Origin: Escherichia coli phage AZ21
Length of the DNA stretch: 64,000 nt
Sequence record: LC788708.1
Reading direction: 5' to 3' (one strand)
Position 1 is the first letter of the stretch; each line of letters opens with the position of its first letter. Shown here piece after piece: positions 37,924 to 38,929 of the stretch. A program made the position numbers and the translations under genes. The notes below the pieces were generated by a model, which was given only the letters and a program-made list of their open reading frames with translations, made no database searches and was not told the origin of the DNA.

Positions 37924-38157
37924 TTACTCGTTTTCGGTGTTAGTGGTAAAAGTAGAGATATCGATACCTTTTACCATTTCATCGATCATCTCAGCGATGT
38001 TAAAACTTTGCACCATTTCTAACATTGCCGCTTCCATAGCCGCCCCTGCTACCGCTTTCGCTTTCTGATTAGTCGGGGCGTACTGGTCAACCGCTACACT
38101 CAGCAGGTTAGCGATCACTACACGACCAATCGGCGTATCAATATAGCCTTTGATCAT
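37924..38157 (-). CDS. 77-aa ORF; probable C-terminal continuation of the 38138..38929 ORF across an A7 run
   Basis: Frame reached by removing one base from the T7/A7 run at 38166-38172. Confidence 0.4.
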   Translation of the reverse strand: MIKGYIDTPIGRVVIANLLSVAVDQYAPTNQKAKAVAGAAMEAAMLEMVQSFNIAEMIDEMVKGIDISTFTTNTENE

Positions 38158-38929
38158 AAACGGTGCTTTTTTTAGCCGCTACTTTCGTGATTTGAGTTAG
38201 TGCAATTTTACCAGCTTCCAGTTTTGCAGCGTTTACAACAGCGGATTTATTAGCGGCAACGATATTAGCGATCTTGGTCATGGTATTTTTTCCTTTGTTT
38301 TCAGTAGTTTGAGTATTAACGCTTTGAGTGTTAGAGCTTACAACCTGTTTTTCAATATTGTCAACTGGTTTTAGTGTAAATCCAGCATTTGCAACGTTTG
38401 ATTCATTCCCATACTCTAAATAATCACTAGGGATCAACATGTTGCCACTAGCGCGTTCAAAACATAACACGCCAGTTGTAGAAATTACATTACTATCAGC
38501 ACTTTTGTAATTAGCTGATAGTTCACGCCAAATGCTAGTTAATAACGATCCGACACTATCAGTCCTGATATTACTTACTTTTGTTGCTGTTACTTGCTCT
38601 TTTTCTTGCACGTTATATAATCGCGCAATGTAACCACTATTAGATTCACTATAACCAACAATGATAAAATCAATATCTCTTCCACGTTGATTGCGGAAAA
38701 TGTGATAATCACGGTTGAAAATTACTAGCGCCCTTTTCTGGTCTAGTAATTGTGTGAAATCTTCAACTGAATAATGAGTACCCTCATCGTCTAAAATTCT
38801 ATCATGAATCTTTTCGATAATAGTAGCGGTATGCTGTACGCTTGCCGCGCTACTACCCTCTAACAGATTGCGCAAACTGCCTTTAATAATAGTGGCGTTT
38901 GCTGGTACTGCAATTCTTACAGTAGACAT
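38138..38929 (-). CDS. first gene of the reversed cassette, hypothetical 263-aa protein
   Basis: GAGGGAG RBS; own promoter upstream. Confidence 0.5.
   Translation of the reverse strand: MSTVRIAVPANATIIKGSLRNLLEGSSAASVQHTATIIEKIHDRILDDEGTHYSVEDFTQLLDQKRALVIFNRDYHIFRNQRGRDIDFIIVGYSESNSGYIARLYNVQEKEQVTATKVSNIRTDSVGSLLTSIWRELSANYKSADSNVISTTGVLCFERASGNMLIPSDYLEYGNESNVANAGFTLKPVDNIEKQVVSSNTQSVNTQTTENKGKNTMTKIANIVAANKSAVVNAAKLEAGKIALTQITKVAAKKSTVYDQRLY

Follow-up and report, generated by a model that had tools for sequence, protein, structure and literature searches.

The subject of this analysis is a gene that is interrupted at a run of seven adenines (A7) in the pre-early region of a T5-like phage. 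The window—the whole 64,000-nucleotide (nt) stretch of DNA that was analysed—is 100% identical to the T5-like Escherichia coli phage AZ23 (LC788707.1; Tequintavirus, Demerecviridae), and we refer to it by that name. The AZ23 record carries two open reading frames (ORFs) that overlap, of 263 and 77 amino acids (aa), here called ORF1 and ORF2, as two separate hypothetical proteins. An earlier note had joined them into one gene split by a 7-nt homopolymer, and had proposed a sequencing indel, a slippery frameshift site, a contingency switch or a pseudogene as the cause. Here we identify the pair as a single disrupted orthologue of T5 gene 011; the seventh adenine is probably a non-programmed +1 insertion in an ancestral A6 run encoding Lys-Lys, with replication slippage as its most likely origin, tolerated in a gene that the phage can do without.

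A split orthologue of T5 gene 011

At the junction the minus strand reads GCG GCT AAA AAA AGC ACC GTT TAT GAT CAA AGG CTA TAT TGA, and ORF1 ends ...AAKKSTVYDQRLY*. The earlier note was right that the 263-aa ORF stops just after an A7 run; it had placed the plus-strand T7 at 38166-38172, and the run in fact lies one base to the right (Table 1). When one A is deleted from A7, the frame continues as ...AAKKAPFMIKGYIDTPIGRV... up to the stop of the 77-aa ORF, and the fusion that had been put at about 335 aa computes to 334 aa. The ATG of ORF2 is an internal Met codon that has no Shine-Dalgarno sequence, and ORF2 overlaps the end of ORF1 by 20 nt. Because this "start" Met is Ile (PFIIKGY) in several lineages, ORF2 has no conserved start codon.

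Table 1. Features of the disrupted gene and its transcription unit, in window coordinates
Feature	Coordinates	Strand	Remarks
Whole disrupted gene, orthologue of T5 gene 011 (T5.011 / T5p010, "37 kD pre-early protein")	37924..38929	-	334 aa with A6; assigned from Pfam, PHROG and synteny
ORF1, 263 aa: 254 native residues and a 9-residue out-of-frame tail, STVYDQRLY, with TGA stop	38138..38929	-	
Lesion: A7 run on the coding strand (T7 on the plus strand)	38167..38173	-	ancestral A6 = AAA AAA, Lys253-Lys254
ORF2, 77 aa = residues 258-334 of the intact protein, distal part of the C-terminal helical module	37924..38157	-	
Second A6 run of the gene (GGA AAA AAT, just before Met217)	38286..38291	-	intact here; internal control
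Shine-Dalgarno sequence GAGGGAG for the ORF1 start codon	38940..38946	-	from sequence; sole good ribosome binding site of the unit
Sigma-70-like promoter match TTGCCT-18-TATCAT upstream of the gene	38963..38992	-	consensus scan; consensus-level match only
Hairpin terminator AGCGGGGATTATTTCCCCGCT, 9 nt past the ORF2 stop	37895..37915	-	closes the single-gene unit, as annotated after T5.011

Family profile searches support the repaired frame. The fusion matches Pfam DUF7566 (PF24450) over positions 1-336 of 336 (E 4e-136) and phrog_4263 over positions 1-334 of 334 (E 5e-159). Taken singly, ORF1 aligns with positions 1-257 of the 336 in DUF7566 (E 1e-84) and ORF2 with positions 260-336 (E 2.5e-42); the two also cover consecutive halves of the PHROG family. 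Since the two ORFs match consecutive parts of one DUF7566 profile, their adjacency is not a matter of chance.

The architecture of the protein can be read from an AlphaFold2 model of an intact orthologue with 97% identity. The model has a confident alpha/beta N-terminal domain (residues 1-189), a disordered linker, and a helical C-terminal module (residues 215-328) whose long helix (residues 215-254) ends with the Lys-Lys run. Across 25 unique intact sequences, strong conservation is seen in this C-terminal module (about 118 residues), with a mean identity of 96% versus 63% for the N-terminal part; hence what the lesion removes is the final 77 residues of the protein's best-conserved part. A C-terminal module of about 100 residues is also found joined to unrelated N-terminal parts in Klebsiella phage Spivey (832-1797), Serratia phage Slocum (754-1794) and phrog_16673. 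The T5.011 protein appears to be modular, with the conserved C-terminal module as the element common to Sugarlandvirus and the Serratia T5-like phages.

The gene sits in the pre-early (first-step-transfer) terminal-repeat region, divergent from a block of A2-, A1- and dmp-sized genes. In AZ23 the neighbours are a 556-aa A1-sized coding sequence (CDS) together with A2-sized and dmp-sized CDSs, and the gene order is that of T5 and PK7. The earlier description of a "first cassette gene" therefore holds loosely—the gene opens the pre-early block T5.011-T5.017, which lies in the terminal repeat. In T5, gene 011 is annotated as one CDS of 336 aa that has a promoter and a rho-independent terminator of its own, and the T5 st0 annotation describes its product as a [quoted passage not shown]. 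The sigma-70-like match in AZ23 occupies the site of the annotated pre-early promoter upstream of gene 011 in T5; the T5 promoter has been experimentally characterised and is mentioned in a recent preprint (bioRxiv 10.64898/2026.04.02.716235). Together, the promoter match, the GAGGGAG and the hairpin terminator would frame one transcription unit.

Directly downstream of the terminator lies a further minus-strand gene, at 37365-37883 (495 bp; annotated at about 164 aa in relatives). It is also present in PK7, IME178, EscoHU1, MM-1, pork27 and Klebsiella phage Spivey and is absent from T5, where the gene after T5.011 is T5.012; the pre-early block is mosaic at this point, by insertion or deletion.

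Several properties of gene 011 bear on how a lesion in it should be read. Expressed alone, the gene is toxic to E. coli, as two independent studies found (PMC8201957; bioRxiv 10.64898/2026.04.02.716235). The second of these reports that the wild-type gene could not be cloned, that expression leaves cells slightly elongated with a disturbed nucleoid, that genes 011-017 are dispensable for laboratory infection, and that 011 "resists functional predictions" (bioRxiv 10.64898/2026.04.02.716235). Moreover, DT57C and Gostya9 are naturally without gene 011 (Davison, bioRxiv). Our own function search on the protein returned only DUF7566 from Pfam, nothing from PADLOC and nothing from a profile search of the PDB. 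Many DUF7566 proteins in UniRef and GenBank (e.g., P0013, P0017, P0088 and STG2) bear the name "DNA N-6-adenine methyltransferase"; Pfam detects no methyltransferase domain in them and no structural match backs the name, and the label looks like a propagated mis-annotation.

We also considered whether the gene is the classical pre-early A3, the ColIb abortive-infection trigger, an identity that would explain its recurrent loss. This was rejected, as the trigger first called A3 is A2 (PMC10644984; Davison, bioRxiv). Papers on escape mutants of T5 and on the toxicity of its pre-early genes were searched for signs of selection against 011, and nothing specific was found: retron Eco2 escapers map to A1, and 011 receives no special mention in the daunorubicin paper.

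The adenine run among relatives

Relatives encode one protein where AZ23 has two ORFs. A single CDS of 1002-1011 bp with A6 is found in PK7, IME178, EscoHU1 and T5 (NC_005859; AY692264), T5 st0 included. Protein length is 328-340 aa in 118 of the best 120 homologous clusters, and it is 334 aa in 14 of the 15 members listed for the 90%-identity cluster to which AZ23 belongs. Among fetched copies of the gene the run is A6 in 42—including three T5 records, PK7, IME178, EscoHU1, IMG/VR sequences and metagenome contigs—and A5 in 7. The metagenome copies (10 contigs and one contig of a metagenome-assembled genome, MAG) have A6 in 11 of 11 cases. A pattern scan of IMG/VR gave 25 matches for A6, both T5 terminal repeats among them, and 0 for A7; likewise, a peptide specific to the A7 frame had a full-length match in AZ23 only among 397 phage records. 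Split products identical to those of AZ23 do recur under a second accession pair (BEU76169/70), counted on 2 contigs.

The earlier note had singled out orthologues encoding two proteins, each with its own ribosome binding site, as the finding that would speak against it; the comparison came out the opposite way, with one A6-bearing ORF in the orthologues. These single-ORF orthologues do not favour recoding, because the out-of-frame A7 is unique to AZ23 rather than conserved.

The same run has also become shorter in other phages. Several further records have the 77-aa ORF annotated. Carriers of A5 were found with a peptide specific to the -1 frame and then confirmed by direct inspection: MM-1, MM-2, phiAPCEc03, pork27, INF11, MET_P1-197_46, GE_vB_N5 and mar004NP2 (KKPP lineage). 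With AZ23 included, 9 phages in about 397 records (~2% of isolates) are off-frame at the run. For MM-1/MM-2, phiAPCEc03, pork27, INF11 and mar004NP2, A5 is the only lesion in the gene, as judged by a check within the gene. The A5 carriers share 66-90% mutual identity and differ at flanking synonymous sites, and for pork27 there is an intact relative at 99.9% identity. For these reasons the changes in run length are best read as recent, independent events at the tips of the tree, in both directions, with no conserved arrangement.

In the A5 alleles of MM-1, pork27 and INF11, the upstream stop overlaps the ATG of the 77-aa ORF as ATGA, the classic layout of translational coupling. In the same three alleles the zero frame reads AAA AAG, on which -1 slippage is known to occur readily in E. 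coli.

Other adenine runs of the gene have changed as well. T5 strain ATCC 11303-B5 (AY587007.1, 918-1927) has lost one A from an A4 run (GGCAAAATTG to GGCAAATTG), and because of this loss T5.011 appears there as two frames, ORF011 of 245 aa and ORF012 of 77 aa. This A4 run is undamaged in the two remaining T5 records, and AY587007 represents a strain difference or an old sequencing error. The same A4 run has gained an A in a Logan contig (P0102), while the second A6 run of the gene has become A5 in a metagenome contig (L050, with a 118-aa ORF) and in GE_vB_N5. We considered the possibility that the Lys-Lys run is uniquely hot relative to the second A6 run (6 events versus 0); the frameshift of the second run in L050 weakened it. 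Overall, the pattern is that of generic slippage at the longest runs of a losable gene, with no one special site.

Weighing mutation, error, recoding and switching

The A7 run might not exist in the phage at all: the phage would then really have A6, and the deposited AZ23 consensus would have over-called one A. Homopolymer miscalls are the commonest assembly error, and they are evident among the relatives. GE_vB_N5 (marked UNVERIFIED) has about 20 homopolymer deletions in this gene and MET_P1-197_46 has three, and both are plainly poor assemblies. The one-base difference between T5 AY587007 and the two other T5 records points the same way.

To see how AZ23 compares, homopolymer events were assigned to AZ23, PK7 or IME178 by an alignment-based three-way polarisation over about 52 kb; exact-flank homopolymer matching was too strict to be informative. 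IME178 has 12 specific events, at least 7 of them inside long ORFs and mostly single-A/T insertions. Its annotation (MZ398246.1) agrees with these indels by splitting the Ser/Thr phosphatase, capsid/scaffold and tail-fibre genes, essential genes among them, and the record looks error-prone at homopolymers. PK7 has 3 specific events, all intergenic. AZ23 has 4: those at 20873, 34403 and 40225 are non-coding, and the one at 38167 is the lesion. The AZ23 assembly thus does not show the many homopolymer indels in conserved genes that mark an artefact, having 1 coding event in about 52 kb. A pairwise comparison with PK7 (~54 kb aligned) gave the same picture, with this lesion as the sole uncompensated ORF-breaking homopolymer indel.

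Two of the non-coding events have settings of their own. At 40225-40231, between the divergent pre-early operons, AZ23 has A7 versus A6, just upstream of a TTGACA box; at 34403-34409 it has T7 versus T5 in a repeat-rich region near the injection-stop signal.

Against a miscall stands the distribution of these events. The aligned DNA is mostly coding, and randomly placed errors would mainly hit coding DNA, as in IME178; instead, the only coding event in AZ23 lies in a gene known to be dispensable, as expected of real mutations filtered by selection. The identical split products under the second accession pair also argue against a miscall.

Some points do weigh against a real, inactivating mutation. 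Three of the four AZ23-specific changes (34403, 38167, 40225) are expansions that fall inside a stretch of about 6 kb in the terminal-repeat region, those at 40225 and 34403 being +1/+2 expansions near the lesion; such clustering could reflect a local assembly problem in a collapsed repeat. The A7 run is known from the deposited consensus only and may be a consensus error at a homopolymer. A literature search for a paper on AZ23 or its sequencing platform found none, and the second record with the same split may share AZ23's pipeline. The "clean" status of the five A5 carriers rests on the within-gene check. Lastly, the 263-aa product retains the whole of the N-terminal domain that is confidently modelled in the intact orthologue.

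On balance, we consider a miscalled A6 unlikely, though it is the foremost of the competing explanations. A real mutation in the phage is favoured, if not strongly, because the AZ23 pattern looks selection-filtered—a single coding indel in a dispensable gene.

If the A7 run is real, it could in principle be a site of programmed recoding, at which a +1 frameshift or transcriptional slippage would routinely fuse ORF1 and ORF2 and give 263-aa and 334-aa proteins by design. Restoring the frame in AZ23 requires a +1 ribosomal shift (or -2), or the loss of one A in the mRNA. The run does offer a route: P-site tRNA-Lys on AAA could re-pair perfectly at +1 on A7, the next codon (GCA) then restoring the native sequence, and low-level slippage on A/T runs is known (PMC1088944, PMC6260861). 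The features that accompany recoding were nonetheless missing where we looked for them. The zero frame, AAA AAA AGC, presents AGC in the A site, which is not a stop, slow or rare codon; there is no Shine-Dalgarno-like element before the run (GTAGCGGCT) or before the ORF2 ATG; the downstream fold over 86 nt is not significant (z = -0.98); and no Rfam element was found. A -1 shift at the run gives KKHRL* and leaves the frame unrestored.

Comparison with other genomes leads to the same view, as in no relative is the out-of-frame layout of two ORFs conserved. The runs examined by Baranov et al. (2005) have 9 A or T, and it is from conserved run length among homologues that these authors deduce purposeful use (PMC1088944), whereas the AZ23 run has 7 A and is found in one genome only. 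According to Koscielniak et al., a run must have at least 7 T, "and even more adenine residues", before E. coli RNA polymerase bypasses an indel (PMC6260861), and for adenines that is more than A7 provides. Programmed recoding is accordingly the least credible of the explanations, and we regard it as extremely improbable; trace rescue by a tRNA-Lys slip is chemically plausible and would be adventitious.

A contingency switch would make the short A-run a heritable, reversible ON/OFF or high/low control over a toxic host-takeover protein, with the OFF alleles (A5, A7) favoured on some hosts and reverting on others. A number of observations fit such a role. Run length has changed independently in at least six lineages, in both directions and in about 2% of isolate genomes; the gene 011 product is toxic and conditionally dispensable; and from either OFF state one slip of tRNA-Lys (-1 on AAA AAG, +1 on AAA AAA A) could in principle yield traces of the exact wild-type protein. 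Read in this way, the Lys-Lys run would be a natural dosage switch, with slippage from A6 to A5 or A7 sampling "high" and "very low" expression on different hosts.

The tract itself, however, does not have the properties of a maintained switch. A6 is far shorter than typical mononucleotide contingency tracts. All 25 of 25 sequences have AAA at the run, and they have it also at seven other Lys columns (overall AAA:AAG 435:98); the Sugarlandvirus homologue in Klebsiella phage Spivey has AGC AAA at the run position. Because seven other Lys columns are equally AAA and the Sugarlandvirus homologue lacks the run, the run is not selected as such, and no sign was found that selection maintains the tract. 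The 11 of 11 metagenome and MAG copies with A6, together with the changes at other homopolymers of the gene, are what generic slippage under relaxed selection would give. A5, A6 and A7 do all occur among isolates, and some of the off-frame records are clearly error-prone assemblies. Thus, the part of the contingency proposal that stands is that the same run varies, to A5, in a few phages; the switch itself is improbable, and the evidence does not favour the dosage-switch version, which we likewise find hard to credit.

We are left with the plain frameshift lesion from the original list of options: a pseudogene or, less likely, an assembly error, with none of the signals expected of programmed recoding. 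Our preferred reading is that the AZ23 allele is probably an ordinary frameshift, a truncation or pseudogene of a non-essential host-takeover gene; the truncated protein has probably lost its function.

Two further observations on AZ23 lie away from this gene. In the tRNA block AZ23 is without about 6 kb that PK7 has (window 16805-17125 versus PK7 11215-17569); the tRNA genes that ARAGORN finds in the window number only 6 (Arg, Ser, Met, Leu, Tyr, Met), versus about 16-20 annotated in PK7 and IME178, including two tRNA-Lys. The missing block agrees with AZ23's small 104-kb record and with the known deletability of this region in T5. Elsewhere in the window, the longest G/C homopolymer, a G8 run at 8245-8252, adjoins a GC-rich inverted repeat (GGGGGGGGCGAAAGCCCCTC) and is apparently non-coding.

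Expression of the split gene and known systems

T5 pre-early genes are transcribed by the host RNA polymerase. In AZ23 this polymerase would start at the pre-early promoter and read through the unit as far as the hairpin terminator, and ribosomes starting at GAGGGAG/ATG at 38929 would add 254 native and 9 wrong residues before stopping at the TGA at 38140-38138. The last 77 residues would be left unjoined, being made in trace amounts at most, through rare slippage or through inefficient re-initiation at an internal ATG that lacks a ribosome binding site. The insertion would be tolerated since the gene is dispensable and its product toxic to the host. The run would be the most slippage-prone spot of the gene, which would lead to the independent A5 changes in other T5-like phages.

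As a routine frameshift allele, the AZ23 gene puts little at stake for the biology of recoding; its uses are more practical. The AZ23 entry is better annotated as one disrupted T5.011 orthologue than as two hypothetical proteins. At least five other T5-like phages, like AZ23 itself, would be natural knock-outs or truncations of gene 011—a toxic, hard-to-clone gene—and could serve as material for functional study. In addition, the three-way homopolymer test separates clean from error-prone assemblies of T5-like phages; IME178, GE_vB_N5 and MET_P1-197_46 fail it.

Programmed frameshifts of the dnaX type (-1, at A AAA AAG) and of the prfB type (+1) are familiar comparisons for a run of Lys codons read by slippage-prone tRNA-Lys. 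The AZ23 run resembles them in that it too consists of Lys codons decoded by this tRNA; it differs in having no in-frame X XXY YYZ heptamer, no Shine-Dalgarno stimulator, no downstream hairpin and no slow A-site codon, and a -1 shift restores nothing. Phase variation offers a second comparison. Receptor-binding genes of Campylobacter phages contain hypermutable poly-G tracts that are long (about 9 or more G), maintained, and variable within populations. Gene 011 is like them in having an in-gene mononucleotide tract that differs between isolates and switches the frame; in contrast, its tract is an A6 that is not specially conserved.

The "pseudo pseudogenes" of Baranov et al. (2005) are closer in form: a CDS is interrupted at a mononucleotide run and slippage could restore the frame (PMC1088944). 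Those cases use 9 A or T with conserved length, whereas AZ23 has 7 A in one genome. A related case is Citrobacter rodentium tssM, reported as a gene interrupted at an A/T run and partly rescued by transcriptional slippage (PMC4256274).

The nearest parallels are found among the T5-like phages themselves. The A5 alleles (MM-1/MM-2, phiAPCEc03, pork27, INF11, mar004NP2) and AY587007 are like AZ23 in that a single-base change in an A-run produces an N-terminal ORF and the same 77-aa ORF. They differ in being -1 events with an ATGA stop/start overlap; AZ23 alone is +1, with a 20-nt overlap and a 9-residue foreign tail.

Finally, T5 gene 011 itself is the intact counterpart. The AZ23 gene is its orthologue, with a full-length family match once the frame is repaired. 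In both phages it opens the 011-017 block of the first-step-transfer terminal repeat, lies opposite A2/A1/dmp, and has a promoter and a terminator to itself. The two are nearly the same in the Lys-Lys run and in the C-terminal module, while the N-terminal domain of the AZ23 protein is only ~58% identical to that of T5. T5 has A6 and one 336-aa ORF, whereas AZ23 has A7 and two ORFs.

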